From Candidatus Omnitrophica bacterium UBA6253 (lineage in GTDB: Bacteria; Omnitrophota; Gorgyraeia; Gygaellales; Profunditerraquicolaceae): 64,000 nucleotides of DNA. A program made the translations under genes and the position numbers. This document shows, in pieces, positions 4,241-40,100 of the stretch (positions within the stretch are counted from its first letter, which is position 1; the number at the start of each line of letters is the position of its first letter). Below the pieces are notes generated by a model. It saw only the letters and a program-made list of their open reading frames with translations. It had not been told where the DNA came from and did no database searches. Location of the stretch: assembly GCA_002441245.1 (NCBI GenBank), contig DJVP01000012.1:325504-389503 (forward strand). Direction: 5' to 3'.

Positions 4241-4245
4241 TTTAG

Positions 4246-6419: not shown

Positions 6420-6484
6420 CCTTATACTCCTTCCGTTTATCGTGGGGGATTTACCCCTTGGGGATAGATTATAAAAAGACGTAA

Positions 6485-6519
6485 TGTTAAAATTTAACAT
6501 ATTTTAATGCTCTGGTCAA
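6485..6519 (-). promoter_or_regulatory. Candidate sigma70 promoter plus a palindromic operator upstream of the sugar ABC operon.
   Basis: On the minus strand: TTGACC (rc of 6514-6519), 17-nt spacer, then TAAATT (rc of 6491-6496). A perfect 8+8 palindrome ATGTTAAA.TTTAACAT at 6485-6500 overlaps the -10. Confidence 0.4.
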
Positions 6520-6538
6520 GTTCTTTTGTTTGAAAAAA

Positions 6539-7257: not shown

Positions 7258-7587
7258 TTAATTCACTGGAAGATTATTCTTAACATGTTCGCTTATCCAG
7301 CTTATTGCCGATTCCTCAATCCTGTTAAAAGAAAGCCCATAGATATTCTTTTCATAGGCGTTATCATGCCAGGCTACGTGCGCCCCCATGTCAAATACTA
7401 AACCTTCAGTCAAGGCCAGCCTGAAACTTGAAAAGGCCTCATGAAAAAGGTCCCTGCTTAAAGAAATCTTCATTCCGGAAGTGCTTATATCTTCCACTGT
7501 ACAAGGAATAGAGCTAATGCCACCATCAAAAACCAACCCTGCCTCTTTATCAAGTTGCCACCGTGCTACCTGCCTACGCTCTTGCAT
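7258..7587 (-). CDS. PilZ-domain protein.
   Basis: 109 aa with RRQVARWQL...EDISTSGMKI. SD AAGGAGGGGA lies immediately upstream (rc of 7590-7600). Confidence 0.6.
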   Translation of the reverse strand: MQERRQVARWQLDKEAGLVFDGGISSIPCTVEDISTSGMKISLSRDLFHEAFSSFRLALTEGLVFDMGAHVAWHDNAYEKNIYGLSFNRIEESAISWISEHVKNNLPVN

Positions 7588-7679
7588 ATCCCCTCCTTAT
7601 CTAATTCACTTGATACCTAACATGCTGATATAAGGGAAGTTAACAATATTATCCCTTACTTTATTAAATTGTCCACTGA

Positions 7680-13100: not shown

Positions 13101-16100
13101 CAAATTTGCATTAAGAATATAAAAATCATCATCTTCTATCCACCCATGTTCTTCCAATATAACTCTTGCGAAACTTACGTTTCGGGAATTATTTTCTATT
13201 AAAATAACCCTGCGTGCCCCCAGGGAAAGTGCTATACAAGAAAGAACACTTGTCCCGGCCCCAAAGTCAACAACAATTGCGTTTTTAAACATTTCTTCTC
13301 TTGCCAGTATCGAGGCAATAGTGGAAACTGTAAAATCATTCAACGGCTGACCAGGCTGGGCTGACCAGGGAGAAATAAAGAAAATGAAATCGGAATGCTT
13401 GATATAAAGATCACCGAGCTTATCTTTATACTGTCTGGCCAATGCCCTCGCCTTCCGAGAAACCGACTCCTGAGACCACCCATAACTATCTGACAAAAGA
13501 ACAATAAATATCATCCGGCCTAACCTGTACATACTTCTGGTAAAATTTCTTTTAAAATTATAATCCTTATCGCCTATCTGTATTTTCCGGTTTCCTTCCA
13601 GGGGGAATCTTGAAAGAAGTTTTTCAATATCCCTGGACACTTGAGCCATCCTTTCCTCAGAAACTATCTCCATATCAGCAGGTACTGTTACCGCCCCAGG
13701 AAGGACAGTAGGAGTATGCGGTGAGATGGATAACCGGCTATGGATATCATCAATAGCCCTTTTAACCAACCGCTCATTTTCCTGCTTAATTCTTATTTCC
13801 AACTCCACGATATCATCCTTAGCTTTCTTTAATGCTGCGATTTTTATGTAAAGATCGCCGCTAAACTCTGGATGGAATCTATTCATTGGTTCCATAATAC
13901 GGTTAAAACTTCTTGCGATATCGCGGGCAACCCCCTTTGCAGACCTTACCACTGGTGAACTGGAGCACACTCCCGCTGCCGCTGCCTGACGCTCATAATC
14001 CGCTTCTTCTTGCGCCAAATTCCGAGTCAATTTGGGCCAAGAAAAACCGCCAACTTTATTAAGGTAAAATGAAACTGTCCGCTCCGGGAAATAACGCACG
14101 ACCGCCCCATGAAGAATGCTAACTTCGGAAAGACCCGCCCTAGTAATGAATAAAATATGCATTTGTTTGGCGAAACAATACAAACTAAAACCTTTACCCA
14201 AAAGTTTTCTTCCGTCGCTCGATAATCCGCCAAAATCCCTGTTCCAATCTTCATACTGGCAGCCAACTCCCAGGGCCAATTTGATATGCGCGCTACTCTG
14301 TTTCGGCACCGCCACATGAAAAATACAACGATCATTATGATAAAAACAGTGCCAATCGTGCCAATCGCTGTTAAAATGCCTCCTCCACTCGATCCCGTGA
14401 CCGACTTGCCCCGGAGATGCCGCGTTTAGCTCAATCCCGGTGACGGCTCCGGAGCCAAAATAAAACAGGAGTTTTTCAAAAGAAGTCAAGGGCTTGGCCA
14501 GATGTTCAAAATCTTTCAGCCGCGCCAGATCGTCTTTGCCAACGTTTCCCAAAATACGCTGCGCTCCATCGAACGCCTTAGACAAACCCAAGGTAGCCCT
14601 ATCAACTACCGTCTTGCGGAAAACCAACAAATGTGCCAGATCGATCTCTGGCGATGTGCGGCCCCTAAACTCAACATCTTCCGAGAGCCTTTTTCCAAAA
14701 ATTTCCTGGAATAAGTTGAGACGCTGAAATAAACCCACCGGAGCCCGTTCTTTAAATTCAGAAACGAACGCCCTTTGATCAAAGACAGGATACAAACTCC
14801 ACATTTTATGAATAGGGCTGGAACAAAGACCATAACGCGCTATAAATTCATCCTTCTTAATCTGCTGTTCAAAAAGATACTCTTCTATACTCCAGGCTGT
14901 TACGCCATCGTCAAAAACATCCCACCGCATATCCCTATGCCCTAAAGTCCTGATTTTGGCCAAGGTTGACTCGTTCCTTAATTCAGGATCATTCTGCAGT
15001 AATCTCTTAATTCCAAAAACCCTTAATTCATGGCCAAGGCCTACAAAACGGCGGGCTTCTAATTCAGGCAGCCTATTCCAAGGTGATATCTCCATGACTG
15101 CATAGCGGATATTCTGATATAAACTCGAGAAACCAACATCCAAATCAACCCAACCTTCTATTTCTAGTTTTTCATTATCAAAAGACAGGGCTAAATATAG
15201 TTGGCCTAAGCCTTCTGACTGCCACTCAAGAAAATCCCTGTAAGCTATTACATCCGAAATATGCTCTGTCTCAGGCTTTCCGTCAAACGATATCCATCTA
15301 TTAAAACTATTTGCCGCAGATAATTTCATAGCAGCATTTAATGATTTTGCCATTACCACCGGTAATTCCACCATAACCTTTCCGGCATGATTATGGCCAA
15401 GGACCACTACCTTGCCTTCCAAACCAATACCGCCATAAATCTGCGATTGAATGGTTTCTTTTACCGGTGAACTGGAACGCAGCTTAAGCGGTAAAGATGA
15501 ATAAGCTGGCTCAACATTTTTATAATAGCGCGCTAGCGTCGCCAGGGTAATATCGTCTTTTTCATTCCTGGCTTTCTTTTCCATATCTTCTAATATTTCT
15601 CCTCTGGTTTTCAAAATACCTCTTGAAACCAAACTCTCTATTCTTTTCTCCATTTCAGCGATTAATTCATCAATGGTTAAATAACCTCTTATCAACCCAT
15701 TCCGCCTGGCGGCCTGCAAAAGAGGAAGAAAATCAGTATTTTCCGAAACCTCGATATCAAGCTTTAATGCCAGACAGGATTTTTTAACTAAACCCCATAA
15801 AGAACTATAAGATGACCTACCCTGTATATCCATAATCTCGGCAAGGCTCTTACCGCAAGCCAATAACCTCAATATCTGCAGCTTGGCTAAACCAAATTTC
15901 TCCTGCTGTACCTTAGCCTGCAAAACAGATAAATCAAGTTCTTTAGGAATCTGGCCCATGCCCTGTAATGATTTTATTAAAACCAGGGATGTAGCGAATG
16001 GCTTTTTATGGCTCCCATTTTTTAACGTTATATTAATATTTTGTTTTCCTGCTCTTTTCTTGATATATGCCGGGCCGCATAAAACATCGCTCCTTGCTAT

Positions 16101-19100
16101 GCCAAGTTCATGATTAATTTCTTCAAAAGAAAGCCCTTTGGCTCTTAGCTTTAACGCGTTTATCTGCACATTTGAAAGGAATATTACCGCATTACGCGCA
16201 GAAGCGAACAACTTCATTTCTACCGCCCGCTTCAGGATTTTCTCAACAACTGCCGGGCCAAAACCCTTATCATCAATGCCAAACTTCCTTTTAATCCCGC
16301 GGATATGCCTCTTATTTGCATCCACCTTCACATATCTACTGCTTGCAATATCCCTGGATCTTACCTTTCCTTCCCGCATGAAGGCTAAAATATCTTTCTC
16401 CGCATCAGTTAACGGATTAACCAAAATATCAGGATAGATCTGCCTTGTTTTTTCTATTAATTGCGGCCAGGACTTCCTAATTTTACGTTCCAAACCAAAA
16501 GCATCAAGTATGGAATAAACGATTATTCTTACCGTTCCCTGATGGCTTAAATTTAAGGCACTGCCTATCACTTTATAAGGCTCCCGTTGGCACAAAAGTT
16601 TCAAGGTGACCAATTGACGCTGGTTAAATAACGGTTCAGCAACATATGCGCCCACCGGCGAGCTACTTGTAAATTCCCGGTTGATTTCAAGATATGCTTC
16701 CGGTTTCAAAGGAGTGAAATAAACAGGCCCGTAATAATCGTCTCCCCTAGTCCACCAGACTCCTTTTAACCCAGGTCCATAGGCATTGGAGTATTCTGGG
16801 CGGTTTCCTGCCTGGAGTACGGCCCTTACCAACTCTTGCGCAGGAATTTCAACATAACGCTCCAACCACCTTGGCCAATCATACTCAGAATCAGGAGGCT
16901 CTTGATGAACCAAATCTTTGATCCGAGACGTTTCATCTATTGAAGGAATATCTTTTGCATGTAATGAAGCGCAATAACCTGAACCTAAAAGTGAATTAAG
17001 TATAGTTCCCGGAAAACTATCATTAAACTCTGGCACATTGGGATACCCTTTCAATAGTTCATCTTGCGCCAAGAATGCCACTCGTACAGCTTCATCAACA
17101 AGGTTGTAATATCTGTCTCCACCATCTCTTCCTAGGGAAGACAAACTATTTGTTCTATCAGGGCCGTATGTTTTAGGAAGACCGATAATATCGCAATTCA
17201 ACCAGCCCTGCCAAACAATAGCATCGAAATCATAACCCCTGCTTCTTTCCTGGGGCTGCATTAAGTCTTCGAAGAATATTTTAATCATTCCTGCCAATTT
17301 ACGGCTCTGGAGATTGGTAAAACGGACTGAATGACCCAAGCGTAAGGCCTCTAACCGCAGAAATTCAAGCACACTCAAACCTATTCCTTTATATTCACCC
17401 TTCCCTCTGCTGTTAAGGGTATATATCACGGGTATGCTTATCTCTTTATATTCTGGATCTATTACTATATTCACGCGGTTACCTCTATGGAACTGGCCAT
17501 TAAAACCTATAGAATATAATAAATCAATTTTCTCTTCCCCTTTAGGCTCTCCATCTAAAACTAATTCAATGCCTATATTGTGATCCAATATATTCCTAAA
17601 TGATATTTTGCTTTCTCCTAAAGCGCCGGCCACATTAATATCAACCGGCGAACTACTCTTTTTTTCAATTGTTCCTGGATCTAATGCCGCAGCGGCTTTT
17701 TTGATAGATAGAAATACATCCAGCATGTAAAAATTACTCTCATATAAAACTTTCATGTCTATAGGATACGCAACCGCCTTGCTTATTCCCGGAAACGGAA
17801 AAATATGTACGCGCATGTTGTCAAACCAGCTTCTCTGCTGGTCTTTAACTGTGTAATTATCGCTATCGATAATCTTTACATCTAAATCGGTTTCTGATGT
17901 TATCGGCCACGGCTCACAAGACATGAATCTTTTAAGAATACCTCCATAGATATAGCAAGGAGGCAATAAACGGCCTTTCTGCTCATACAAACCTTTAACC
18001 TCTCTCAATACTATTTTCAGGTTAGTATTTAACAACCAGAGGGATTGCAAGAATTCATCAGATATACCGCCAGGCACCCTTGCACGATACTCTATCATTA
18101 TTTCTTGCGGGATAACTGGATCCTGAGGTACAGAGCTGTCTGGTAATGGGCTTGAGACAGATAACGGCAAGGCGGCAATAGCCATCTCCTTAAAGGTATC
18201 GTTACTTAAAAATGCGGGGTGCGCTACAGGCGAACTGGAAAGGTGCAATTTTATGCCTTCCTTGCGGTAGACTCCCACAAGGCGATTAACAACAGGCTGA
18301 AGAACTATAAATTCCCCTTTGCCATTCTTGTCAAAAGTAACGTTCCCCGGATTTTGCTCAAATTCCCTGGAAAGAAAACTGTGCCCGCTCTTAGTAATAA
18401 AAACACCCTCTCCGCTACCCATAGCCTCCTTGAATGTACGAACAGGTTTTTCTTCCAGCAGGTCTCGATAAACCAGGTAATATAGCCCCCAAAGCCCTTG
18501 CTTAAATAACTCAAACCAGCAAGGAGACAGGTCTTTCTTTATGGCTGGGAATTTCCCGCAGATTCTCGGCTTATCCCTGTCTTGGTATATTTTGCAGGAA
18601 GAAACGAATGTAAGGCCGGTGCTATTTGAGAAATCCAGGATTATCTGCAGCGCCCAACAGGGAAACCCTGAAACAAGATTAGATTGACCTATAATCGAAT
18701 AGCGCTGTTTAGGCTTGAGGTCGCCGATTGCAAAATACTCTCTTGTATATGGGCAATCTTTGCCATATTTTCTTCTAAGCACCTTTTTGATTTCTTCCGG
18801 AATCCATTCATCCCTAAAAAAACAACAGGCGGCGTCAACACATAAAAATCTCCTTCCCGGCATACTTCGAAACATCACCGGAATATCCTTTCCTGCCGGC
18901 GAACTGCTATACAGGCGCAACCTGATTACCGTTCCCTTATTATATTCACTATCAATCTCAAGTTCGCTTTCAATACCAAAAACATCCTCTATGCTGTTTA
19001 GATTACGTATACCTACTCCGGGGCTGCCTTTTTTGACAAAATCACCAGCGAGTATGGCTTCCACATCATCCATGCCGCTTCCATGGTCTATAGAAGTTAC

Positions 19101-22100
19101 TTCAAATACTTTACTGTCTGCATGATCCCCATAAATCTTCACCAGGAAAATACCCCAAATTGCATGCCTCCATATATTAGTCAATAATTCTTCTATGATA
19201 ACCCTGAAAGGATTCTCGTATTCATCAAAATCAAATCCTGAATTATTCAATAAAAGCATTATCCCCTGTTCAACATCTGCTGCTAAAGCCTCACCTTTAC
19301 TGGATAGCTCTATAATATTCTTATGTTCATTCGAATTGAGATAGCTATCATCCAAATCATCTTCCTCTATGACCCAGGCATTCATAAACAAATTCCTGCC
19401 CTGTTGTCTTGCCCTATCAATCATACCCCTGGCTAACTCTAAATTATTATCCCAGACCGCGTCCTGCAATAGATCAACGTCGATTACATCTGAAACAGGG
19501 ATGATTAGCGATGGGTTTGAATCAGATAGCGGCAATGCGGCAACCGGAGAGCTGGGATGATTTAAGAACTGTTCAAATTCTTCTACCCCTGCTCTGCCCC
19601 GTGACCATTCTTTAAGTTTATTTTTATATACCAAGAGGTCTTTAAAACCTGTCCGCCTGATATATTCCGCAAGCGGCCCAAAGTAGTTATTATTCTTTTT
19701 GTTAAATTGCCTGACTGTGGCATCCATAACAAATACGGCATCTTTATTTACAAAAAGCAATACGCAATGAAAGTTTCCGCATACCCAACCGCTAACCAAT
19801 AAAGAAGGAATGGAAAACTCCCTGAATAATTTATCCGGGATAAGCGAACAGGCTAATTCACAGGTTTGCTCCCGGGTTAACGGGAGACGGGATATTTCTT
19901 CTTCCATGTCTCGGGCTATACTCGGCCGGTTATTTCTCAGGGTTTCATTCTTAACTTCCTCCAGTTGCGTGATTCTTATCGCTATCGCCTCCCTGGCTGC
20001 CTCCTCCATGATCCTTTCGGCATCCTGGTATGAAATTGCCGGCCTGGCTGCTGGTGAGCTAACAACTGTATTAGCGCTGAAAGAAACCTCACAAGCATGG
20101 TATGACCACAGCCAGGGGTTAAGTTCATTTTGCGAAACCAATAGTCTCTTAATTTCACCCCTATCTTTCATTTCTTTAATCCATTTCGCTACTGGCTGGT
20201 TAACGGGTGTTAAGATCATAAATTCGTCGCATCCGGACTTTTTAAGCATAGCCATCATTTCTGACCACATTTTTTTACCGATGCCCCTGTGCTGAAACTC
20301 AGGATGCACCGCTATGGTAAGAATTTCCGCATCACAGAGATCTTTTCCGTCACGGCCGCATACCCCTAATATCCCTATCAATTCCCCTTTATGGAAATCC
20401 AGTATAAAAGTACATGTAGGATTAACAAGCACATCCCTATCCAAGCTGCTTATGTGGAATGAAGATAGCCCCGCGGACTTAAGTAAATCCAATATCTCTT
20501 CCCAGAAAGTAAAAAAACCATTGCCCCCCACAATCACTGTTATATTCTCAAGATCGTTTTTCTTCTCCCTCTCTATCGGAGAACTGGATATTTGCCCCGC
20601 GCCGGGCATACCAAAATTGAATTCTCCTTCTGATAACATCAGCCTATGCCCGGAACCAGACACAAATATATTTCCTTTGATTTTTTCTAAACCCCTGGGG
20701 AAACTTCCAAGCTGCATAACTGCAGTAAATCGGTCTCTTTGGCCTTCAATATAAAAATTAAAATCATGCCTTAAATCACAGGGATAAAACCCTGTATTTA
20801 ACTGGGCAGGCCTGGAATAGCGCTCCTCATACGGCTTATCATCGACATTTATCTGCACCAAGCCATTCTCTCGGTAATGTATGTACACCCTATGCTGCGT
20901 GTTATCATAAAATATAAAAGTAAACTCCGGGCTCTTACGGTTTACCCTAACCGCAATCGCGTCATTTTTGTGAACAAGTTCTATGCGGAAAGAATCGGCA
21001 CTGTGCTCTATTCTATTTTTTTTGCTTGCCGGAGACTCGCTAAAACCAGCATTAGCTTCTAAAATCCTCCTGAAGAATAGCCAGCATTTTGTTCCGGATA
21101 TATCCCAGCTTTCCCTGGCTGGCACAGCTTCAAATACATTCTTAATTTTTCCTGTAATCTTGCTGATAAAATCCTCAAACCGGACACTCCCTATGTTAAG
21201 ATATTGCCTGGAAATAGCCGGAACAATCCTGGCAATAGGAATGCGGTTAGCTGCCAAGAAGCTTTTTATTTTACGGATCTCGCTTTCAATCTGCCGGTCA
21301 TCCATGTTAAAAATATTCGCCCAAAATGCCATTCCGCCGATAGATAACCTCGTCCTTAATGAAAAGAAATCAAAGCAGAAGGTCAGCCATATTTCCTTGA
21401 CTTCACCGCCATTAAGATAGCCCTTGATTTTCTCTAAAATAACCCCTCGCTCATCACAAGCAGACCAGTTTGTCCTGGTTGCTCTTGCATTGTTAGAACC
21501 ATCGTAATATGACCTAAACCAGACTAAATATCCTAATCCATCCTTCTCCATCCTGCTGCCCCAGTTACCTATATTACGAAGCAGGCTATTGCCTAAATCA
21601 TAATCTTCATGTGCGTCCGCATTAAGCACCAGTATTTTCCCGCCTAATTCTTTAGCCCTGATTTTTATAAGATCATAAATGTCAGAATGGTCTTCAATCG
21701 GCTGATTAAGGATTACGACTTTTACCGGAGAGCTGGAACGCTTACGCAAGCTGGCTTGCTCCAGAGAATGTTCGTATAGTTCCGGGCGCGGGTTTTCGGA
21801 CGCGGGAAGCTTGCGGAGAATTATTTCTATTATTGTGGCGTTATCAGGATAAAATCCGCCCTGGACCCCCTCTATTAATCCTTCTACCCTTAAAAGGAAT
21901 TGCCGGCCCAGCTCGCTAAGGATACCCCGGTTAGCTATTAATAACGCCCTGGTTTTTAGCAACTTATTTATCACAGAATCTGTTTCATCCGGGTAATCTG
22001 AAGCCGAAATAGGCGAGCTGGTTATATGAGCTATCGGCTTACAGGCTTCATCAAGGAAAAGGAGTTCCTGATTATAATCCTTTCGGGTTTTCAACCATCC

Positions 22101-25100
22101 TGCAAATTGATTGACCAACTCCTCTATCTGCTGGCGATGGTTTAATTCGGTTTCTGAAATGGTATAACCTGCATCATTGCCCTCAGCAAGGCTTAAGGCT
22201 TCATCAAAAAAATCAAACTCTACTTCTTTTAACTTCGGGTAATATTCCGCCGCTTTTTCAGCTAATGTGGAAGGCGCATAGTAAAGAAGTTCCTGCAGCT
22301 CCCTGAAATAAACCATCAGGCGGCGAGTGGCTTCGGAAAATTGATTAGTAATATCAAACAGCGCTGCTACTTCGGGATCATCGAATTCATCATCAAACTC
22401 CAGATCTCCGGTCTGAACCAGTTTGCTACCAGCCTCTATGTGCTTCTTATACAACAAGGTAGAGAAATATATAGCTAACTTCCTGGAAGGATAAGCAATG
22501 CCTGCCTGAAGCTTATACTTTTTTATGAATTCCGCATTATTTCTTATCCTGGCAAAATTACTCTCCTTACAGAAATTAATTAACCCTATACGGACAACAA
22601 TACCTAACCCCTGGAGGATTTCTATGGCCTCCCTGTTTTGCTCCCGGGTTATGCCCTTTCTAAAATATTTTAATTCCTCATTATTATCACTTTCTACGCC
22701 TACAAATACCTGTTTTAATCCCGCTTCCTGCAGAAGGGCGAAAATCTCTCTGCCTGCCTTACATACAGCATCAGCCCGGGTTAATATCCAGAAACTTATT
22801 TTTAAACCTCTTTCGATAATCCCCTCGGCTATGGCCCTGGCCCTTTCCGGGTCAGTACCAATAAAATCATTATCCAGAATATCAAATCCGGTTCCTCCGA
22901 ATTCCCGGTGAAGAAATTCTATTTCATCGACCACTCTTTTTGCAGAACGCGGCCGCCATAATAAATCTTTTAATTTTGCGCCCTCCTTACGGTTTTCCGC
23001 CTGGGCTTCATTAAAAAAGCAGTGCTCGATGCAAAAAGTGCAATTTCCGGGGCATCCGTAGGAAGTATCCAGCATAATCTTATTAGAAAACATATCCGAG
23101 CCAGTCTGCACTATGCCCCAATCCAGAAAAGGCAAACTATCCAACTCTTCTGTGGTTAAGACACGGTTCGGGTTAATGACTATCTGCCCCTCCGGCCCGC
23201 GGTAGATAATATTTTCCACTCCCGCAAGGCCCTTGCATTCAGATAATGCCCTTACCGCCCCCAATAAAGCAAACTCCGCTTCACCGGCAATAATAAAATC
23301 TATATCTGGGATTTCCTTCAAGAGCTCACCCTTACAAACAGCAGGCAGATGGCCTCTGGCACAGATAAAAAATCTTTCTTCCGATTTTAGCTCCCGGGGC
23401 AGATAACTAAGGAACTCGACAAAATACGTTTTATCTCCTGGAAACAAATTTAAACATATAAATATCTGTTTTTCGGGATAGCTATTAGCGAGTGTGGTTA
23501 TTTTAACGGACAGGTCTTCGGCTGCAAGATTAAGGTTATTTGCATCAATAAATTCGGTAGGGATCTTATTCTCTTTTAAGAAAGCGCTTACCCTGGCAAA
23601 TCTTAATGGTTTTACGCCTCTGACAGAACTATGATGGTTTGCATTTACTAAAACTACTATAGGCGGGCCGGTTTCGGACAATTCCCTTATCCCATTTAAA
23701 ATCTCGCGATGTCCGTTACCGATATCGCTCTTTGCTCCCACAAGGCCGTTTTTGTGCGGGTCATTGCCTAACAATGGATTATCGTAGAGATGCCTCTGGT
23801 TTCTTACTATCGGCGAGCTGACAGCAGGCATTACATGATATGCGCCATAATTTCTCTCCTCGAGCATGCGTTGCGCAATAAAACCATATTTCTCAACTAT
23901 CTTAAATAGATCATTCTCCGTTACTGCAGGATTCCAGTCATCCGGAGATACAAAAAACTCAATGGGCCATACGACTATCGCCCTTCCTGCCACATTAAGG
24001 TACGCTCCTAATTCTTGAAAGAACCTGTCAGCTATATTTTTTCGTTCAGGCCAACCGGAAAAATTACATGCCACCAAATCAAATCTTTCCTCTCCCAAAT
24101 CAGTAAAAAGATCACCTTGTACAACCCTTATACTCTCAAATAACCCGAATTGTTTGATATTTTCCCTCGCGGATTGTACAGCGCGCTTGTCGATATCTAC
24201 GGCTACCCCAGAACCTCCGGCAAGTTGATTAATGCGTATGGATAATATCCCCGTGCCGCAACCTATATCCACAAAATTAATTCCAGGGCACTGGGGAATC
24301 TCATTAAAAAATAACTCCAGCGCTTTTAAACTCAAAATAGTTGTAATCTCGGGAATGTGGATACCCTTATAGGCAAAAAGGTCCCTACCTAAATGCGGAC
24401 TAAAGAAAACTGTTTTTTCTGATTCAATTTTAGACCCTATAATCGCATCATTTGCCGTCGGAGAAATAGGCTGCTGTGACACTGGCGAAGAAATACACAT
24501 AAGATTATTACATTTCAATACGCCTGTAAATAAACCCCTTATTAGCTCCTCTGCTGTTTTCTCCCCTCCATTACTAACCCAAATTTCTTTTAAGCTATCC
24601 CCCTCTTCTTCTATCGCTCTCTCAAACTCATATTCGGCCTGCCCCCAGAAAGCACGAATATTTTTTGGTTTACCAATTACGTCTTGCTGACATAATAGCC
24701 TTAAACAACCTGACGTATACGTGAATAAGTGCCTTCCCGTAACTAACCAGTAAATAATTCCGGCCATGGCATAATGTATTTCAGATTCAATTACACGCAC
24801 CGAATGAGATCCATATATCCTTCTCAAAGAAAAAGTGTCTATAAAACAGGTGATGGAAGAGAATTTATTAGGGGTTTCCGGCAGGCGCGCTACCTCTTCC
24901 TGTTCTACCCGCAAGCTGTTGGAATCTTTAGCTACATAGATAGTCTGGGGGGTTAAATTTACCGCTCTTAATCCTGTTTTTGAGAGTACTTGCTTTAAAT
25001 AGATACACTCCTCTATTAATGATGCTAAGAATACTGACTTCTCTCTCAGGAGCTCTGCTCTTGTCGTTTCTATCAGCTTTATTAAGTCGCCGGCTATCCC

Positions 25101-28100: not shown

Positions 28101-31100
28101 ATGTAAATATATCCTGGCTTCAAGCGGGTAATTAATCGGCGAAGAACTTTTCTTGCCGGAAATGCCGCGCCTGCTAATTATCCCATAAATCACTTCCGAT
28201 ATTTTCACGGAATCATGATAACTTTTTGCTTCTTCGTCCTCAAAATCCCCCATTACCGGTTTTATCCCCATTGCCCGGATATTCGCTATATCAGCGTAAG
28301 TATAGTAAGTTTCATTCTCTTTAGGCACATTGACCAGAGCATATTCAATATAATCCGTGTTTATCCGGCTGGGGTGTTTATCCGCATTCCTCAGATGTAA
28401 CAGGGCCAACCTTACCATATCGCTGGCGGCTAAACCTTTACTTTCCGCAGAACTATAGCGGAAATTACGCCATGAGATATTCACAACAAAAATCTTGGCT
28501 GCCCTGGTTAACCTAAGAGCTTCAGGGTTCCCCTTAACCGCTAAAGCCGGTATATAGCTGGTGATACTACCCGGACCGATAACTATGGCGTCTGATTCCA
28601 AAATAGCTGCCAGGCTCTCATGAGTAGCTGACGGCAGCTTCACCTCTTTACGGGTCCCTCTTCTGACAAAAATAATCCGTTCAATCTGTTCCGACTGGTT
28701 AAAACGATGATCAATTTCGTACTGGCCATAAATTACGCTATTGTTTTTCATCTTCGCGGCGATATCTAAATTAGCTAAACTCGCCGGGATTAACTGTGTG
28801 TAAGTATTAACGCCCAAAATACCGGATATTTTATCTATAGCCTTAAGGATATTCCTTTTCGCAGCAAAATACTGGCTGGCAACAATAATATTGCCGACAT
28901 TGGCATCAAATAACGGAAAGCCAGTATTCGCGTTTTCAATCTTCTCGCGGATAAAATACTCAATTGAACCCTGCAAAAAGGTTCTTAATTCTCCGGATAT
29001 ATTGATACCGCTTGCCCTCTCTTTAGCCTCTATTAAATTAAGCAGCTGGTTTTTAAGCTGGGAATTGCTGTTCCTGGTCTCTGTTTCCCGGGGAAACCTA
29101 TGGTTCAATATCTCTTCTACTAATTTATTCTCCAGGGTATCCGGTAAAAGTGCGACCAGCCTGTTACGTAAATCGCCAATAGCCGGCATATCCAGATGTC
29201 TGCGCAATATTCCGGTGCTAAACCCGTTGTCAAAAACTGTGATAATATTATATAAATGCGCTCCGCGGCTAATAAGCCCTTTAACCAGCTTCTGGGGGCC
29301 GGAGCCTCCTCCGATACTGGTTATGCAATAGCCGCCCGTAACCGGCGATGACCCTGAAGAAGGAGTAACCTCTATTTTTAGGCGGGTAGCCTTATCTTTT
29401 TTCTCTATCAGTGTTATTTTGCCAAATTGGGCAGTAATATCTCCATTTATGCATACATTAAAATATGTACGGCTCCTAACGCCACGATAAATTGCCCATA
29501 ATTCCTTTGTTTCTTTTGCATCAAACCCGGCTTCTCCGGGATAATAGCGGGAAAGCCACAAAAGAAGGTCTTGCCGGCCCTGCGGTACCCAGCCTTGCTT
29601 ATGGTCTCCATAAAATATTTCTACTGTGTTTATATGCGCATAATTTACTACCAACCCTGACAATATTTCCTTAATCCTGGCCCGGAATTTCTTGTCTACG
29701 CCAAAGAAACTATAAGTAACCTCTCCCTTGGCTTTAATTTTTGAACCTGAAACAGCCGAGACAAAAATGCTGGTTTTATTTTTGGCAGCCTGGGCATCAT
29801 AAGGGACCTGCGGCTCCAATAAAATAAGCTCTGGGATTATAATTTTCTCTACCATATTTTCTATGGATTTGATTTTAATACTAAGGCGCTCTTTTCTTGC
29901 CTCCAATAAATTAATTGCCAGGTTTACTCTATCAAGAATTTCTCCGGTCATGCCATTTTCCAGGCCTCCTATCATTAAATCCAGCTCCTGGCGCGCAAGG
30001 GTTATTTCGTGGGCCTCAGCAACTTTATTTTTACTGCCCCTCATCCTGCCTAAAATTGTCTTTACCTCGGATAATATTTCCAGATGCCCTGTCTTTCTGT
30101 AAAAATCAAGCCTCAGGGAGCTTAAAAGCTTTAAGGCCTGATTGATCCTTTCCTGAGACATAATAATGCTTTCGTATATATGGATAGTTTTCCTATACGG
30201 CTTGGGAAGCTGGGGAACAAGAGCCCTGTTATATGTTAACGGAGAGCTGCTCATAACCCCTGTTGATTTTGAAAACGTTTTCATTAACGCGCCAAAAAAT
30301 AAGGGGGTGGCGCCTTCTGCCTCACAGGACCAAGCAATATTAATTAAAACAGTAAAAAAGATAGATAAAATAGTAATCCAGCTCAATACTGTCACCCAGG
30401 AGAAATTCCCTAAGCTAAATTCACTATATAATTCCCTGGCAAATCTTCTATATAGGCTATTTTTCTGCCTGAAAATTACAGATAAAACAGCCATAGCTGC
30501 TCCCGGGGTAGGATATGATTGATAGCTATCTAACCACTTTATTATTTTATTAGAATAGCCTGATGCCCTCAGGACCTGTTTTATCTGTTTCCTGTTTCTG
30601 ACTCCAGACGCTTCATAATTAAGGATGGCGAAAGCCAACTTCCGGAAATTCATGTTCCTGCGATTACGATGCGGGCTTCCATACCCCCTGGAATTATCAA
30701 TTAACACCCTGGCAATATCAGAATAGCTTGACCCAACAGGACTGGATGAGGAGGTGTCTTTCAATGATTTAAGGGTTTTCCTTACAGCTTCCTTTGATTT
30801 AAAAGAGAATTTATGCTTTCCCCAGAAATCCTGGCCTAAAACATACTCCAGTAATTCACTACCCGTTATTTCTCTGCCTGCCCTCACTGCGTAAACTAAA
30901 ATCCTATTATTAATGCGGGAGAAATCTTTAGTCTCAACGAGCATTTTCCAATCCAGGGTCCCGATACATATTTCATCAATGCTTACCTTAAATTCAACCC
31001 TTACCAGTCCGCCCACGGAATTCCTGAATGCCGGCTCCCGGATAGCTTCTAACATCTCCTTGGCTACAATAAGAGGAGATTTCATCAGCTCCAGTAAAGC

Positions 31101-34100
31101 TTCTTTCTGGAGTGCCTGTTTCTGCTGCTGGTTCTGTATAAAATTAAAGAATGATAAGTGGAGGATTAAGACTTGAGGATAATATATGAAACTGGCAATT
31201 TTCCCGTTGGTGTATTTGGGGTTAGAAACAACGTTGATATTAAGCCCTTCGGGAGGGGCGTTAGCGTTGGAATTCTTAATCAACCTGAATAACTCGGATA
31301 ATTCCCTTTCTATTGGGACAATTCTTTTTCTTGAAGGCAGGGCCTCCAATTCAAAATTCCTGTTTGCCTTAAATGCTAAATTAATTTTATTAAGTACAGG
31401 AAATTGCAATACATTTTCAGAAGCTACAGGTATCTCCAAAGGATAATCGCGCCTTGCCACCCTGGCTGCTATTGGGCTGGAAGAATGGCTTTTTGGTCCC
31501 CGGGCCTCTTTGCCGTATTTTACGGAAATCTTGCCGAATATGCCCGGCACGCCCATCATTTTTTCTACTTTTCTAAAATCAAAAACGGGTTTTAATGAAT
31601 TATATTTTATCTTGGTCTCTAATTTCTCAACGACCTCCCAGGCCATAGCACTCATATTCTGCCTGGTGTTAAATCTATGACCGAATTTCTTTTCCGCCAT
31701 ATCCCTGACTTCCTCAAAAGTTTTATCTCTTATCAAAAATTGAATAAAAACAAACTCTTTTAAAAGTGTTATCCTGCCATTCCTGCGATGGTGCCTTAAT
31801 TCATACCTATTGTATCTCTCAATTGCTTTACCCATTAGATCCCTAATGCTTATTCCAATACCTTTTAAGTTGATTCTATCCAAAGTATCGTCCTCTACCC
31901 CCAGCATATCCCTTAATTTTCCGTCATTATCAGGGCTGATTTGGGCGTCTAATGAAGCAGGGTTGATAAGATTGCCTAACCGTATAACGCCCCCTATAGT
32001 GTTTTTTCCTGCCCCCAGCCTATCGGCAATCTGGCTTATTGTAGGAACGTTTCCTCCGGATTCATTTTTGAATGAATCTATAGCTCCATTTACCTTCCTT
32101 ACCCGGGAATATATATCCGCCGGCAGCTTGGCTCCATTAAGATGGCCCTTGGCAATGATTATTCTGCTGAATTGTACATCTAATGTACTCATATTAGTAT
32201 TAGGAACTGTTTTACCTATAACGAATGTCATAAAATCACCTTTATCAGGGTCAAATTTATCTAAGCGGCCGATCATATACTCTACAATTTCATGAGAGAG
32301 GTCAAATAAAGATATAGAGGTGGGAAAACGACACTTATAATCCCGGGCCCTTTTTATTATCCGTTGCATGCTGCCTGTAATTAATTTATCCTGCGCCTGT
32401 TTTGCCCTGGCTTTAGCCCTGGTATCTGCTCCGGGTATTTTCCCGTTTCTAATCGCTTCCATTAACACCCTCTGCTCTTCTCTTGTTGGATATTTAAAAG
32501 CAAAATACGACTGCAATGTCTCCATTTCCATATCATCATCTTTAGCTTTACTGAATCCTGAATTTGCGATATCGGGAAGCCCTTCACATTGAGCGCCATC
32601 CGAATCTCCGGTGCCTACCGGGCTATATTTTTCTTCCTCAACTAAAGTGGGCATGATTACTTCCGGAACAGCCAAAGGTTCTTCTTTGGCTGCTGATAGT
32701 TCAGCCGCAAATTTCTTAGTTAGCTTATTCAGTACGCCTTTTAGTATTACAAAATACCCCTTGGCCAATATATGTTCTACGATGGACAGGCGTAAACTTC
32801 TTTCTTCCCCCCATATCGCTGATAAAATATCGCTTTCGATTATTGCTTTCTTTTGCAACGCGGTTTTTATAACCCCATCCATTATCTGGGCCATTTTTTG
32901 CCCGGGTTCTAATTTCACGCCTAATTTTCGGCGGATCTCCCCATAGACATCCGTTGTCATACGCCTGCGGCTTATTCCCAGTTTTAATGCAATTTTATCC
33001 GCTTCAAATCCCATCGCGCTATATGCTAAAACCCCTGCTTCAAGTTTGCTTAATTTCACGCTATTATAAAAAAGGTAGATAAAGCTATCATAGCTTTCTT
33101 TACCGCAATTTATATACCCCTTCTCATACCCTGCCTTAACGCATTCTATAAGGGTATTCCTGCCGTCTTTATCTATACCAAGCTTATTGGCAATTTCGTC
33201 AACAAAAACCTGGATTGTATGCGGCTTAAGGTTCAATGCTTGCGCTATCTGGCGATTTGTATCCATTGAATTATTAACTGCTGCCTCCAGAATTGATCTT
33301 TCTCTGTTGGTCAACGGATTGGTGATGATTTTTTCCGCGCCGGAAGCATCCTCAACCGTAATCCAACCTTGTGTTAAGGCATATTTTGCCGCTTTAATCA
33401 ACTGGCTATGCCTCCAGTTGTTTCTTTCGCCTTTTACCTCCTTAGGCGTTTTTCCATAAACACTGTAAAAAGCCCTGCGGTAAATATACCTGGTATTGGG
33501 AAAATTCATGGCCTTAGCTATTTCTTCCAATGTTCTGCCTTGCAGTATAAAAGCAAGGATTTTCCTGGCATCATCATTAAGTGGGTTTGATTCCTTGGAG
33601 CGTATATTCTCAATATCTGCATCGCTGATATTCTCAACCGCTTTCAGCTTTAGCTCTTTAGCTTTAAGCATCAACGCAGACAACCCTGAAATTGTAGTCC
33701 GGGTCCCCTTAACACTTGTTTTATCTATTTTAATCCCGAATTTACGCCGCACGTCGCTTAAAGCGTTTCTTACTCTTTCCCGGCTTAGGGTAATTATAAA
33801 TTTATCAGCGATATTCTTTACTACCCGGTCAAAAAGCCCCCTGAATCCTCCGGCTACCGCCTCCTTTATTACTTCCTCAAATATCAAACTCTCCTGGCCG
33901 GTTAACTTAGGCCTGGTAATCGGGCTGGAACTGCCTGGGTTAACTATATTTTGAAGCGCGCTTTCCAGCAATCCAACTTCGGCATCCACGCCTCTTTCCT
34001 CCTCCCGGCTCAACCCCTGCGTGTCCAAAACAATATATTCCGTTTTAAAAACTTTTACAGAAATCCATAATACTTCCTTTAAGGTTTTACTATTTATATC

Positions 34101-37100
34101 CGCAAAAGAAAATTCTGCACCGATTTCAAATATTGCTTCATTTTTCTGTATCTTAAACAAAAGGCCGCTATTCATTCTAATGCCGTTGTTTTTAATACGC
34201 TCTAACTCGCGCCCTATGAGCTTTTCATTAAACAAAGCTGTATATTGGGAAAGTTTTCTTTCTTCGTAAGATAAAAATCCCTCTCTAATAGCAATCAAGA
34301 ATCTCAGGTTGCTAAGAGAATCTGCCTGAATCGCTGTTGCAATGTAACTGCTCAATCTATCCAGAAAAGCAGGAGGAAAATGGCTGGATAATAGCTTCTC
34401 TACCAGATATTCTAAACAATCGAGGTCCCTGCTTAATATTAAAAGTTCTATATCCGGCATTTTGGTTGATTTTTCCTTTTTTCTGTTCTTATTTTTTTGC
34501 TTAGCTCCACTATCGCCTTTTAACGCAGAGAGGTATTGCTCCAATTCCTGCTTCTTGCTTTCAAGAGCAGATTTCCAATCCCCTATAGGCATCCCTGCTC
34601 CAAGCGTAAAAAACGCCCGTAATAAATCCTCTTCTTTTGCCTGAAGATATATGTCTCTTATCAAATTAATAATTCCCTCCTGGCCCTGGAAATTGTTCCC
34701 AAGAAAGGCAAGAAATTCTTTTCTTTTTCTTTCTTCCAGCCCAAGGAGGCTTCGAAATAAATCAGCGATTTGCCTTTTGTCCGAAACAAGTACCGCGCAG
34801 ATAATTTGGCTTATTTTCTGCTGCTGGCCCATGTCAAAATAGCCGCTTGCTGTCTTAAGGAGAAACTTCAGGGCGTCTTCAGCCAAATCAAATCTTGCGG
34901 CTAACAAGCATATATTTACATAATCAACAACCAGCCTCACATGCTGTTTTTCAATACGGCCCTTAGCCCCCTCCATATCTATTCCAGCTATCCTGAAGAT
35001 CTCCCCATAACCTGCGCTTATATTCAGGAATATCCCAGATTTATCCAAGACCCTGCGGAATGCCGTCAGCGGAAGGATTATCCTGTTTCTTATATCATCA
35101 ACCATGCCTTCAAGCTCTTTCTTGGATGCCTTGGAATAAAAAAGCACCTCTTTCCGCAGGGTTGCTATGTCTTCGTTAGCATATAAATCATATGCCATGG
35201 TATGCCCTTCATGGACTAAAGCGACATTAAAATATGTATTCAAAAGATGAAATTCAAAATCTTCTTTAGGGATAGATGCAAGCAATCTTTCTACTGCAAT
35301 CCTGTATTTGGCTATTTTGCTCCCTTGCTCTATACTCATAAATATTATTTTTATATAACAGTTTGCGACTTTCTTTGATATATCAGCAATTATATCTTCT
35401 CCCAACAAAGGCTCTGCTTTTAATAAAGACTTTTTGGCTTTAATATACGCCTCTGCTGCCTGTTCTGCAGCCAAAAGCGCTCCCGGAGCGTTATTATCCC
35501 TCAAAACTATGCTTATATCGTAATGCGCCTCGCAGGCCATCCATATATTCCTGAAATAAAACTGCTGTCCTTTGAGGGCCTTTAATAACGTTGCACTGGG
35601 GATAAGCGAATAGAGGCGGTCCAGGTAGGGAGTGGAGATCGCTTCTCCATTATTGCCTAAGAAAGAAATTATTTTCTTAAGAATATCCCTGCCTGCCGAT
35701 AAGTAATCAATATCCTGCTTAATTTGCCCCTCGTTATAAAGATAAGCTGCAACGCTGTGAAGCGTAAAAAGCACTCTTTCTTCCTGGCCGGGTACATTGC
35801 TTATTAGAAGCTTAAACTGTTCGACATCTTTATTATGCCCGGGCTCAAACTTGAATGTTTTAGCCGCGATATCCGTAAGAACATCTGCCCCTAAGCTTGA
35901 AAGGCCCCCTATATCTTCCGAGGCAAAATAAACAAGAAAATCCAGAAAAGCGCTTCTGTATGAGTTTATGTCCTGGAAATTCCTGGGTGTTATTGCGGAG
36001 AGCTTATTTTGTATTTCATCTCCGTAAACAGGGCTTGAAATAGCTTTTTCATAAATCCGTGTTTCCGCTGCCTCCGGCTCAACAGTTTGATAATACCTGT
36101 TGATTGCAGCCAGTGTGATTTCGTCTTTTTCGCCTGATAAAGCCTCGGCCTTTATTTCATCCAAAACCTCAGATCTGGTCTTTAAAATATCGTCTTTATC
36201 CAGCAAACCCTCAATCCGCTTTTCTATCTCTAAGACTAACTCATCAATACTTAAACAACCGCTTATCAAGCCTTCTTGCTTGGCCTTCCTTAAAAGAGGA
36301 AGGAAATCAGCTTTTTCAGAAACTTTCATATCCACTCCCAACGCTATGGAGGACTTCTTTATTAAATCCCACAGGGAGCTGTATGAAGCCCTTCCCTGCT
36401 CTATTATAATCTCAGGCAGGCCCTTTCCGCAGGCTAAGAGCTTTAATGCCTCTATCTTGGAAAAACCGAATTTTTCCTGTTTAACTTTCTGCTGCAAACC
36501 GGATAATTCCAAATCCTTATCTAATTGCCCTTTAGACTGTAATGATTTAATTAATTTAAGGGAGGTTGCGTACGGCTTAGTTTGATTTCCTTTCTCAAGT
36601 ACTATCTTAATCCCCATTTTTCCAGCTCGCCTCTTGATATACGCAGGCCCGCATATTATGTCGCTCCTTGATATTTCCAACCTACTGTTAATCTCTTCAA
36701 AGGCCAGCCCCTGCGCCCTTAACAATAACGCCTGTATCTGCAGATGGGAAAGAAATACCGGATTCTTTTGCGGCAAAGAATGCAGTTTTTGCTCAGCAGC
36801 CCTTAGGATTTTTGCGGCAACTCCCGGGCCAAACCCTTTCTCCTGAATCCCCAATTTTCTCTTGATACCGCTGATATGCCTCTTGTTCGCATCTGTATGA
36901 ACGCGCCTGGATACGGCGATATCCCGGGATCTTGCCTTGCCTTTCTGCATCAATGCCAGGATATCTTTTTCCGTGTCGGTTAAAGGATTAACCTCGATGT
37001 CGGGATAAATCTGCCTTGCTTTTTCTATTAATTGAGCACGCACCTTCTTAATATTATGCTCTAAACCAAAGGCATCGAGTATAGAATGCACAATCTTTTT

Positions 37101-40100
37101 TACTGTGCCTTGATGGCTCAGGTGCAAAATACTGCCTATTCCTTTATAGGATTCGTTCTGGCACAAAAGCTTTAAGGCAATAAGCTGCCGATCGTTAAGT
37201 TCGCATGATTCCCCTGGCATTAATTTCTCCTGCCCGGCCAGCTTAATCTTTACAACCGGGCTGGATGCCTTTTCTTGATCGCTTAATCTGCTTATCGGCA
37301 GGGGTAAACCGACAACCGTGCATTTTTCCCGGCCATCCCAGTCTTCAAATCCAGGGCTTAATCCTCTATTACCCTCGGGGACCACCTTTAAATCGATAAA
37401 ATATTTCCGGATCAATCTGCGCAAATAATCCCTTCCTTTGCGCAATTCCAGGATATAGACAAAAGTAACTGTCCAATTCATGCGCAATGCCTCCCGGTGT
37501 AAAAAATCAAATATTGTTGAACCAATACCAATATATTCCCGGCCGATACGGCCATAACGGGTTTCTATAGACACTATTTCTATATTCTCAACCTGATAAT
37601 CCAGGCATGCCAGAAGCCCGTTTCCTCTGATAAAAATAAAATCCCCCTTGCTGGTAATATTTTCAAACCCTAAGTCGTAGAAAAGTTGCTTTCTGATTAA
37701 GGACTCCCTGGGCCTTAAATCATACTTATAATAATCAGGCACCTTCAACTCTATGCTTAATGAAGGTTTAAGTATATTCCTTAAAAATATGACATCCTGG
37801 CCCAATTCCTCTTTAGTATCATAAACCGGGCTGCTGCTAAATGCCCCGCCGGAAAGAAACTTTTGCTCCCCACCAGCCACGGAAGGTAAAGCAAAATCAC
37901 TATCATCTTTCCAACGGGGCATAACAATTCCTTTTTCTTTTAATATCCGCGCCAAAATCAGCTTGCCTCTTTCAATTCTTTGCCTGATTCCTTCCCTGCC
38001 AATATCCCACCTTGCAAAGCCTTCATCTTTCAGCGCTTTCTTTATCTCATTAGCCTTCCCGGAGTGCTGGCCCATCAGGATACTTAAAACAGCAAGAAAT
38101 AAATCTTCTGCCTTGCTGATATCCTTCCCCTTATACTCTTTATATCTGCCGATAATATATGCGATTATTTCTTTTTTCTCTAAACGCTCCAGAGGATTCT
38201 CTGTTTTATTATCCGCAAACATATCCAGGAGGGTAAGTCCATCGCTATCATCACCAACCGGGGTATCTATTGATAAGCCCTCTATACGTATTGCCTCAAT
38301 TTCATCCGCAATTAATTTTTTTATGGATTCATCGGGAAACCAATTATAAAGAAGTGTGGAAAGCCTGAACCCCTTATCAGGATCGTATAACGCTACTACA
38401 TCACGCATATTGGAAAAATCCAGAATTGCCCTGTTGGTGTAGAAAATATTCTCCAATAACCTTCCGTATAAATCCAAATATCCTTTATACTGGCTTTTTA
38501 TTATCTTTTGGATACGGAATATTATTATTTTCATTCCTATAATTGCCAGTATTTCGCGGGCTGCCGCGTTCCCATTAAGGCATTCCCGGCCTAATACCCC
38601 CTCTTCTTCTCTTGTCGGCCATCTATAGCCGTCATACATACTACTGATCCCGGAGCCATTTTCATTATCATAATTGACATAATTTATACCCTTTAAATCC
38701 GGAAGAGAACGAAAATCACTATATTTTGCTTCCCATTTTCTCTCAAACGGCTTTCTTCCCATTCTTTTCTTACCATTACCATTCTCTTCTTTGCTTGAGC
38801 TATTATCATTTTGGCCATAAAGATTAACAAATACGCCATAAAGCAATCTTACTTCTTCTAAATCCAGTGCCTTTTCCACATTCAGCTTAGCGAATATGCT
38901 CTTCTCCAACCGTAAATCGGGTGAGCCTGATTTTACCTGGCTAAGCAAATCTAATTCTTCCCTGCTTAAGCTTTTAATGTTTTCTTTAAACTGGATGAAT
39001 AGATATTTAACTCCGGGCAGATACCCTTTATCTATCGCGTATTGGATGCTGCATAACCTTAACCCTTCTTCCAACTCCATAGCTGTATTAATAATATCTT
39101 TTTCGGATATTTCACCGTCTTTAAGCGCGAACATTATGATTTCGGATATATTCTTGCCTTTTTTATCAATACCCATGGCGCCACATATAAAAAGATTATA
39201 CCTGCGGATTGAATCAGCGCCTTCTTTTATCTTTAACAGCCTGCAAGCCATATCCCTGTCAGCAACCAGAGCCTGGATTAATAATGCCTGCTTAAGTTTC
39301 AGGCTGAGCTTTTTCCTTTCGAACATAAATTTAAATCTCTTGAATTCTCCCGCGTCATACTCGATATAGCCTTTTTCCGCGGCACTTACCACACATTGCA
39401 CCAATGTCTGGTAACGCGGTTCAAGAAATTTCGGAATATCTAAAATACTCCTAATCTCACCGACCCTCTCCCTCACAGTAATAAATGATTGGCCTAAGCA
39501 AGCAGCAATATCCTTATATGATATCCGCTTATTTTCTAAGCCTGCTTTTATAGCTGTCTCCAGCAATTTTATCTGGGTCTTAAGCAAAGGATTCGATTCT
39601 TTAACTTTTCTTGCCTCTTCCTGCGCAGGCTGTTTAGCAACCGATTCATTTCTTTGTAAAATATAAATTACCTCAGCTAACTTATCCCTGCTGATTATTC
39701 CTCCCTGCCTGTTAACCAGTTCATATTCCTGCTTATATACTTCCATAAAAATAGGCAATAGTTTGCCGTAATTGCGGGAGGTGCCTAATTTTTTAGTTAC
39801 CCAATACAGCCTGTTACGTAATACCGGCTTGCTACCGATTTCCTTTCCTGCTTCTTTTAAAGGCCTGCCGCTTAGGATATCTTCCGCGATTACCCCCAGC
39901 GTCATTAACTCCATCTCGGTGAGCCATTCCGCGCCTCTTTTGGACGCCCTATAGACATATTCCTTGATCTGGCTAAGATGGATATAGTGGGGGAAGCTTT
40001 CAAAATAACGCTCACTATCCTTATACGCCGCAATTATCAAAGGAGCGACCTGCCCTCTTTTTTTGTCTACACCCAATTTAACGGTGATACTGGTTAGCAA

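Follow-up and report, generated by a model that had tools for sequence, protein, structure and literature searches.

Two paralogous two-module blocks in a giant Omnitrophota gene with modules delimited by a five-residue mark

A giant open reading frame (ORF) on the minus strand runs through a 64,000-nucleotide stretch of the genome of Candidatus Omnitrophica bacterium UBA6253 (contig DJVP01000012.1, positions 325,504 to 389,503; from here on, this whole stretch is referred to as the window). Within this ORF, two blocks, each consisting of a possibly GNAT-like module (module 1) and a module with four helix-turn-helix (HTH) units of the LuxR/GerE type (module 2), are collinear paralogs. The modules of the ORF are separated by a short word of the type SSSPV, and the comparison with relatives strongly supports that whole modules bounded by this word are the units of duplication, insertion, replacement, and reordering. 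Taken as a whole, these observations are probably best explained by old paralogous blocks in a modular giant gene, the cassettes of which are delimited by a five-residue mark. The features on which the argument is built are as follows.

7680..63938, minus strand: giant ORF, 18,752 amino acids (aa) in the window, with its 5' end beyond the window edge and ~53 modules between SSP[V/I/L] marks
36030..37838, minus strand: copy 1 of the two-module block, residues 8701-9303
37263..37838, minus strand: module 1 of copy 1, residues 8701-8892, GNAT-like predicted fold without a Pfam match
36030..37262, minus strand: module 2 of copy 1, residues 8893-9303, four LuxR/GerE-type HTH units (residues ~8915-9208, window 36315-37196), then a helical tail
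15474..17657, minus strand: copy 2 of the block, residues 15428-16155
17172..17657, minus strand: core of module 1 of copy 2, residues 15428-15589
16668..17171, minus strand: extra domain X, in copy 2 only, residues ~15590-15757, with the motif YIExPAQxLV...SNAYGxGLKGVWW...YFTPL
15474..16667, minus strand: module 2 of copy 2, residues 15758-16155, four LuxR/GerE-type HTH units (window ~15741-16625) and a tail
37824..37838, minus strand: junction SSSPV at the start of copy 1
37254..37268, minus strand: junction ASSPV between the modules of copy 1
36027..36041, minus strand: junction ISSPV at the end of copy 1
17643..17657, minus strand: junction SSSPV at the start of copy 2
16653..16667, minus strand: junction SSSPV between domain X and module 2 of copy 2
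15462..15476, minus strand: junction SSSPV at the end of copy 2, which is also the exact synteny breakpoint relative to the related sequence L008

Two collinear blocks in one reading frame

We compared the ORF with itself in 400-aa chunks and, separately, module by module using phmmer. In the chunk comparison, the best internal match by far was that between residues 8701-9304 and 15428-16159, and its pieces had identities of 34% over 180 aa (E 5e-14), 72% over 87 aa, and 59% over 305 aa (E 4e-117). Module-wise phmmer searches between the copies returned E values of 2e-148 for module 2 and 4e-14 for module 1. Based on codon alignments, module 2 is identical in the two copies at 62% of the aa and 65.5% of the nucleotide (nt) positions, and module 1 at 38% and 49%, respectively (32% of the aa positions in the alignment of the module 1 family). 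A DNA repeat search found the pair unaided, as matches of 283 nt at 73% and 89 nt at 78% identity with a spacing of 20,571 nt. An earlier reading of this DNA, made from the sequence alone (here, the original prediction), had proposed paralogous blocks in the same order in the same ORF and visible off-diagonal similarity in a self-comparison of the protein; both are borne out, the coordinates agree within ~15 nt, and the peptides that were quoted are present as written. Its example of ~70% DNA identity, 36621-36720 versus 16041-16140, has 23 matches in 100 positions as written and 70 in 100 when the second segment is shifted by 6 nt to 16047-16146.

The boundaries of the similarity coincide with the junctions. 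In a global alignment, similarity sets in exactly at SSSPV in both copies, extends through module 1 of ~180 aa, resumes at the internal junction (ASSPV in copy 1 and SSSPV in copy 2), and stops at ISSPV and SSSPV, respectively, with no similarity beyond the outer junctions of both copies. Between module 1 and the internal junction, copy 2 has ~170 extra residues, which correspond to domain X. The description of a duplicated two-module block, therefore, stands for the shared order and junctions but has to be amended for copy 2, which carries this additional ~170-aa domain. Domain X matched no Pfam family; it is present in unrelated large proteins, in proteins of 190-274 aa, in P0017 as four tandem copies, and in the phage-like protein P0024. 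It is an independent domain that was either gained by copy 2 or lost by copy 1, at the internal junction.

Module 2 of both copies is matched by Pfam GerE (30.2 and 24.5 bits versus a cutoff of 23.5; E 3e-7 and 2e-5), and four units of the LuxR HTH pattern are visible in it by eye. A profile of 12 such units (from copy 1, copy 2, and one relative) produced full-length matches (positions 2-50) with the C-terminal domains of VraR, DesR, and NarL (E 5e-6 to 1e-3). At the sequence level, these data confirm the anticipated four LuxR/GerE HTH units, for which DNA binding is predicted. Regulators of the NarL/FixJ (LuxR, GerE) type have one HTH each, whereas module 2 comprises four in tandem and is embedded in a giant ORF. 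In NarL-type response regulators, the HTH follows a receiver domain, and likewise the array in P0002 lies directly after a response-regulator receiver domain.

Module 1 had no Pfam match even at E<10, and a profile of nine module 1 sequences had no match among PDB sequences. An AlphaFold (AF2) model of module 1 computed with the 9-sequence alignment had a predicted local distance difference test score (pLDDT) of 83 and a predicted template modeling (TM) score of 0.82, with junction residues 1-8 disordered. Using this model, a Foldseek search against PDB returned nearly exclusively GNAT acetyltransferases, all with weak scores (best E 7e-4, TM-scores of 0.35-0.45, and root mean square deviations of 6-8 Å). 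In the module 1 family, the acetyl-CoA loop Q/R-x-x-G-x-G/A reads R-L-R-G-S-A in P0004, is only partly kept in copy 2 (x-x-K-G-I-G), is displaced in copy 1, and is missing from P0005; as in the GNAT superfamily, a G-x-G/A loop precedes a long helix in most members. The model weakly suggests a GNAT-like fold with uncertain activity. Thus, of the GNAT module that had been proposed, a weak GNAT-like predicted fold remains, but not a Pfam GNAT match.

The junction mark and cassette behavior

The word SSSP occurs 29 times in the giant ORF versus 0.22 times expected, and the SSP core occurs 52 times versus 3.2 times expected, with V, I, L, M, or A as the next residue in 50 of the 52 cases. Only five positions of this mark carry information, [S>V,A,G,C]-S-S-P-[V>I,L,A], while the flanks are unconstrained. 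The Ser codons at the marks are a mixture of TCN and AGY, and the conservation is therefore at the protein level. No SSP site (0 of 52) falls within a Pfam match, although these matches cover 21% of the ORF (P ~4e-6). Several marks lie 3-30 aa from the ends of Pfam domains, and the HAD domain at 7649-7849 and the CofD domain at 11539-11897 are bracketed by marks at 7630 and 7906 and at 11530 and 11932, respectively. With a median of 243 aa and a mean of 354 aa, the 53 modules between marks are about as long as ordinary proteins. SSP is absent from eight neighboring normal genes (3,340 aa). The mark is enriched ~20-fold in seven other large proteins that share module 1 or 2, in variants such as SSPA in one lineage and mostly SSS[AVIL] in another, while unrelated large proteins from the same search have no enrichment. 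We note that the rare codon TCG encodes the Ser before Pro at 20 of the 52 junctions versus 4.4 expected (Fisher p 1e-9 versus all Ser codons and 8e-4 versus non-junction Ser-Pro); this bias was not replicated in the relative L007 (2 of 13), and we therefore do not rely on it.

Two related sequences indicate how the marked modules behave over time. L007 is a metagenome contig with modules 58-72% identical to modules of the window, and these map junction to junction onto window modules 10004-10819, 14069-14451, and 8908-9287. In L007, the three modules are adjacent and in a different order, while in the window they are thousands of residues apart. A similarity of the module after copy 2 to the L007 tail vanished on module-wise BLAST and was discarded. 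Independently of this, the giant ORF of L007 is open except for an in-frame TAG at nt 9428, a codon that is AAG (Lys) in relatives; the TAG may be due to a sequencing error or a polymorphism, or it may truly interrupt the frame.

L008 is ~85% identical to and collinear with window residues 16155-18747, apart from differences that comprise whole modules. Upstream of the mark at 16156, L008 has 902 aa that are unrelated to anything in the window; at this breakpoint (breakpoint A), the DNA of the two sequences is 100% identical from within the motif codons onward, with no identity before. Exactly at the mark at 16660, L008 contains an additional module of 217 aa between ASSPV and VSSPV, and further on window residues 17492-17828 are replaced by 457 unrelated residues. 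Finally, the L008 ORF continues for ~55 aa past the window stop codon via an additional ASSPI mark. The stretches of L008 that differ from the window and the second duplicated cassette within the window are located as follows.

nt 1-2710, 4214-4865, 7375-8759, and 11503-11680 of L008: stretches differing from the window
25950..27047, minus strand of the window: tandem pair of 183-aa junction-bounded modules, residues 12298-12480 and 12481-12663, 34% identical

The tandem pair, together with the marks at both ends and in the interior of the block, supports the proposal that whole junction-bounded cassettes were duplicated. The second copy of this pair is 65% and the first 36% identical to a single copy in P0003. 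The ~800-aa modules at residues 7906-8701 (window 37836-40223) and 10004-10819 (window 31482-33929) are distant paralogs of each other; they hold matches of the GerE and sigma-70 region 3/4 types, with 29% identity over ~200 aa and a second collinear segment. In total, internal paralogs are detectable for only ~10% of the ORF residues, and every such pair is old. The idea that the ORF grows by cassette duplication is, therefore, supported with respect to the cassette as the unit but not with respect to ongoing growth, given this low proportion and the saturated synonymous divergence (pS) of 0.73-0.76 (see below).

More than 20 unrelated Pfam families tile the ORF, and none dominates. They include uridine kinase/PRK, phosphomannose isomerase, ribulose-phosphate epimerase, ROK and glucokinase-like kinases, GT5 starch synthase, GH77, the GDE debranching enzyme, a DUF4922/Ap4A phosphorylase-like domain, carbamoyltransferase, two HAD hydrolases, HD/RelA-SpoT, and CofD. 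Several methyltransferases, radical SAM, GNAT, two HATPase_c domains, and TPR are also present, as are several GerE/LuxR and sigma-70 region 3/4 matches. The recurrence of ROK, HAD, methyltransferase, GNAT, HATPase, and sigma domains had been taken as further evidence for duplication. We found no pairwise similarity among them except for a 36-aa HAD motif, and these cases therefore represent recurrence of superfamilies that are among the commonest in bacteria rather than demonstrated duplications. As a separate observation, a 32-nt stretch that encodes the DxDG(V/T) catalytic motif region is 91% identical between two HAD modules (window 40951-40982 and 53524-53555), and this DNA identity is above that anywhere else between the two modules. 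Accretion and exchange of unrelated cassettes account for most of the ORF length, and duplication has a minor share.

Function of the mark and comparison with known systems

Because the mark is a strict five-residue word with free flanks that is kept across lineages between folded domains, we suggest that it may be recognized by a factor acting in trans, for which a protease that cuts the chain into its modules is the most plausible candidate. The giant gene would then behave like an operon written as one reading frame, in which ~50 enzymes and regulators are joined by the mark, and each copy of the block would, if cleaved, yield a separate DNA-binding regulator. The sigma and LuxR DNA-binding modules would be easier to understand as such released products. 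By analogy with known polyproteins, cleavage at the mark is conceivable, but we consider it tentative. Its most specific version, in which a polyprotein of ~50 enzymes and regulators would be freed by cutting at S-S-S-P-V, possibly by an embedded subtilisin-like module, with the same mark defining the cassettes, is in our view rather unlikely. The candidate protease is junction-bounded and comprises residues 17566-17828 (window 10455-11243) with the motifs VINMSFAG, AAAGN, VISVGA, and GSTSFSAGA; nearly all its phmmer matches in PDB are subtilases (E 0.005-0.7). It lies in the stretch 17492-17828 that L008 replaces with unrelated sequence.

Three observations weigh against these proposals. The subtilisin-like module matches Pfam Peptidase_S8 at an E value of 1e-3, which is below the curated cutoff, and a single-sequence AF2 model of it failed (pLDDT 41). 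Moreover, there is no SSP mark between residues 1609 and 4150 (window 51489-59114), a stretch of 2,541 residues that holds at least five enzyme domains (phosphomannose isomerase, ribulose-phosphate epimerase, carbamoyltransferase, ROK, and HAD). Proline-less variants of the form SS[SA][VILM] were considered as marks and rejected, since they are not enriched (3 versus 3.2 expected). We note that these three proline-less words, SSSAI at 1982, SSSSI at 3447, and SSSSL at 3679, are all in this stretch and at borders of Pfam domains.

The alternative that survives best is that the chain stays uncut and that SSSPV is a structural linker, a modification site (phosphorylation or glycosylation), or a docking site, while the breakpoints reflect selection against the disruption of domains. 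We regard this as not far from an even call, and it is at least as likely as cleavage. Published analyses treat such giants as single membrane-associated polypeptides, and selection alone would concentrate surviving breakpoints in linkers. However, the retention of a strict five-residue word between free flanks, across lineages of 50-85% identity, is not a property of ordinary linkers, and at breakpoint A, the homology begins inside the motif itself. Also, it is difficult to see how DNA-binding modules of the sigma and LuxR types would work within a 2-MDa chain that has about one membrane-like segment. In a hydropathy scan, the 18,752 residues contained a single convincing membrane-like hydrophobic segment (residues 11184-11202, window 30333-30389), the N-terminal ~230 residues being outside the window. 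Among catalogued giants, 94% have transmembrane helices or signal peptides (bioRxiv 10.64898/2026.06.07.730766).

Returning to processing, two known systems are instructive. In the MARTX toxins of Vibrio and relatives, one huge polypeptide carries unrelated effector modules, an embedded protease cuts the linkers between them, and strains differ by recombinational exchange of whole modules. MARTX toxins are secreted, have translocation repeat regions, and are cut after Leu by a cysteine protease, whereas the ORF analyzed here encodes housekeeping-type enzymes and regulators, its mark is SSSPV, and its processing is hypothetical. The sites in viral polyproteins (3C-like or NIa-like) are short strict words with unconserved flanks between folded domains. 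In contrast to the viral case, the present gene is cellular and has ~50 modules, and any relation of the mark to protease sites is hypothetical.

Giant multi-enzyme genes are known in ultra-small bacteria of the Planctomycetes-Verrucomicrobia-Chlamydiae (PVC) group and of the Omnitrophota. The gene in the window resembles these in several respects. It shares with the class 1 multi-enzyme giants of Omnitrophota (Nielsen & Lui 2026, bioRxiv 10.64898/2026.06.07.730766) a length of at least 10,000 aa, a wide range of Pfam families among which none prevails, and the methyltransferase, HATPase_c, GNAT, HAD, HD, GT5, ROK, and radical SAM families. As in giants of the Omnitrophota class 1 and Archaeovorin types, a sugar ATP-binding cassette (ABC) importer and a glycoside hydrolase adjoin the gene. 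The Archaeovorin type has a divergent SecA DEAD helicase and an N-terminal C39/S8 peptidase (West-Roberts et al. 2023, bioRxiv 10.1101/2023.11.21.568195), while the present ORF has only the weak internal S8-like module near the C-terminus, its true N-terminus being outside the window; no SecA_DEAD or C39 domain was detected at E<1e-3 in the part of the ORF in the window. Repeated Pfam domains in Omnitrophota giants have been ascribed to ancient duplication with decayed DNA similarity (bioRxiv 10.64898/2026.06.07.730766), in agreement with our result.

The duplication by itself is an ordinary old intragenic duplication, and the junction-delimited cassette behavior is a feature not described so far for genes of this known kind. 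Literature searches on SSSPV, cleavage sites, and polyproteins for such giants identified no earlier description within the collection of papers covered, and neither of the two preprints (bioRxiv 10.64898/2026.06.07.730766 and 10.1101/2023.11.21.568195) mentions a junction motif, module-level breakpoints, or polyprotein processing sites. West-Roberts et al. stated that the cleavage points are unknown, which blocked module-wise structure prediction (bioRxiv 10.1101/2023.11.21.568195). The mark gives an objective way to split such giants into modules, and it is a concrete site to seek in metaproteomes, which makes it testable whether and where giants are cut. If true, the polyprotein reading would provide multi-enzyme giants as a class with the cleavage points that they have so far lacked. 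The cassette data also provide a model in which the gene grows by cassette exchange rather than by recent repeat expansion.

Age and origin of the duplication

Among 1.84 billion representative proteins, a profile built from both blocks matched 24 in all. Module 2 is in three of these, namely, P0001 (the window sequence), P0002 (a 6,888-aa fragment), and one short fragment, and module 1 is in eight, always within proteins of thousands of residues or in fragments at contig ends. A homologous-protein search with module 2 and a scan of the module 2 alignment over genome contigs gave no match. Module 2 is known from four contexts, each with different upstream and downstream neighbors. In pairwise comparisons, module 2 of copy 1 is 78.5% identical to that of P0002 and 71.5% to that of L007, L007 and P0002 share 80%, and copy 2 is 58-63% identical to all others. 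Accordingly, module 2 of copy 2 falls outside the clade of copy 1 and its two orthologs, with the limit that the root is ambiguous with four sequences. We therefore used synonymous divergence, which is independent of acceleration at the protein level. For module 2, pS is 0.73 between the copies and 0.76 between copy 2 and L007 (both saturated), 0.57 between copy 1 and L007, and for orthologous modules of the window and L008, it is 0.22-0.38. Because pS is higher between the copies than in the comparisons with L007 and L008, the copies split before this lineage parted from those of the two relatives. Judged by these sequence comparisons, the duplication is ancient and predates the separation from at least two sequenced relatives (L007 and L008). 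Module 1 points the same way, with its two copies in different old subfamilies (see below).

Between the copies, nonsynonymous divergence (dN) in module 2 is 0.28 versus saturated synonymous divergence (dS), from which purifying selection on both copies follows; as far as can be read from the sequences, both have been kept under such selection since the split. In module 1, dN is 0.69. In our reading, a unit of a GNAT-like module and a LuxR-type array was present twice before the split from the relatives, and we suggest that both modules may have been copied in a single event.

This account of the block has its own difficulties. The two modules have diverged very unequally (32-38% identity for module 1 and 62% for module 2), which makes a single block event hypothetical. 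The pairing of module 1 and a following module 2 is seen only in this gene; in P0002 and L007, something other than module 1 precedes module 2, and in no other protein does module 2 come after module 1. In addition, the age argument is built on near-saturated synonymous divergence and an unrooted topology.

The unequal divergence would also be expected if the blocks had been recruited separately, i.e., if two diverged GNAT-like and LuxR-type pairs or modules had been fused independently or if module 2 had later been copied beside an existing second GNAT-like module. Modules 1 and 2 are apart in every other protein found, and modules move between contexts. Moreover, the module 1 copies belong to different old subfamilies, each with closer kin in other organisms: copy 1 groups with P0005 and P0012 (40-42% identity), and copy 2 groups with P0007 (80%), P0003 (64%), P0004 (53%), and P0009 (47%). 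However, both copies have the same order of module 1 and module 2 with junctions at equivalent places, and unequal constraint on the modules can explain the unequal divergence. Also, neither module was found as a free-standing gene among the 1.84 billion representatives, all occurrences being within, or fragments of, proteins of several thousand residues. We consider separate recruitment improbable compared with duplication of the block.

A recent, lineage-specific duplication followed by faster protein evolution of copy 2 is far less probable. The unrooted topology ((copy 1, copy 2), (L007, P0002)) is compatible with it, with four sequences only, but pS has reached saturation for the pair of copies, whereas it is clearly lower for copy 1 and its L007 ortholog, and in P0007, from another organism, an ortholog of module 1 of copy 2 with 80% identity occupies the same context.

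An artifact, in the form of an assembly chimera, a collapsed repeat, or a miscalled ORF, has next to no probability: the sequence is metagenome derived, and short-read assemblies break the giant gene into fragments, but copies with 65% DNA identity cannot be misassembled onto each other, the PilZ neighbor and the giant gene upstream of it were recovered on contigs of NCBI, ENA, JGI, and Logan assemblies (in one case, an independent contig of 290 kb from ENA, the gene was called at 19,001 aa), the orthologous modules of the window and L008 have dN/dS values of ~0.2-0.26, and no stop codon interrupts the 56 kb of the ORF, which continues beyond the window.

Plus-strand ORFs of 150-161 aa also occur within the giant ORF, and one of these (36100-36585) overlaps copy 1; over copy 2, no listed plus-strand ORF of at least 150 aa matches it. 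An Rfam search of the window gave no match. Downstream of the giant ORF and on the same strand (window 1119-7231), there are two PilZ genes, the genes for the binding protein and two permeases of a sugar-type ABC importer, and a glycoside hydrolase gene.

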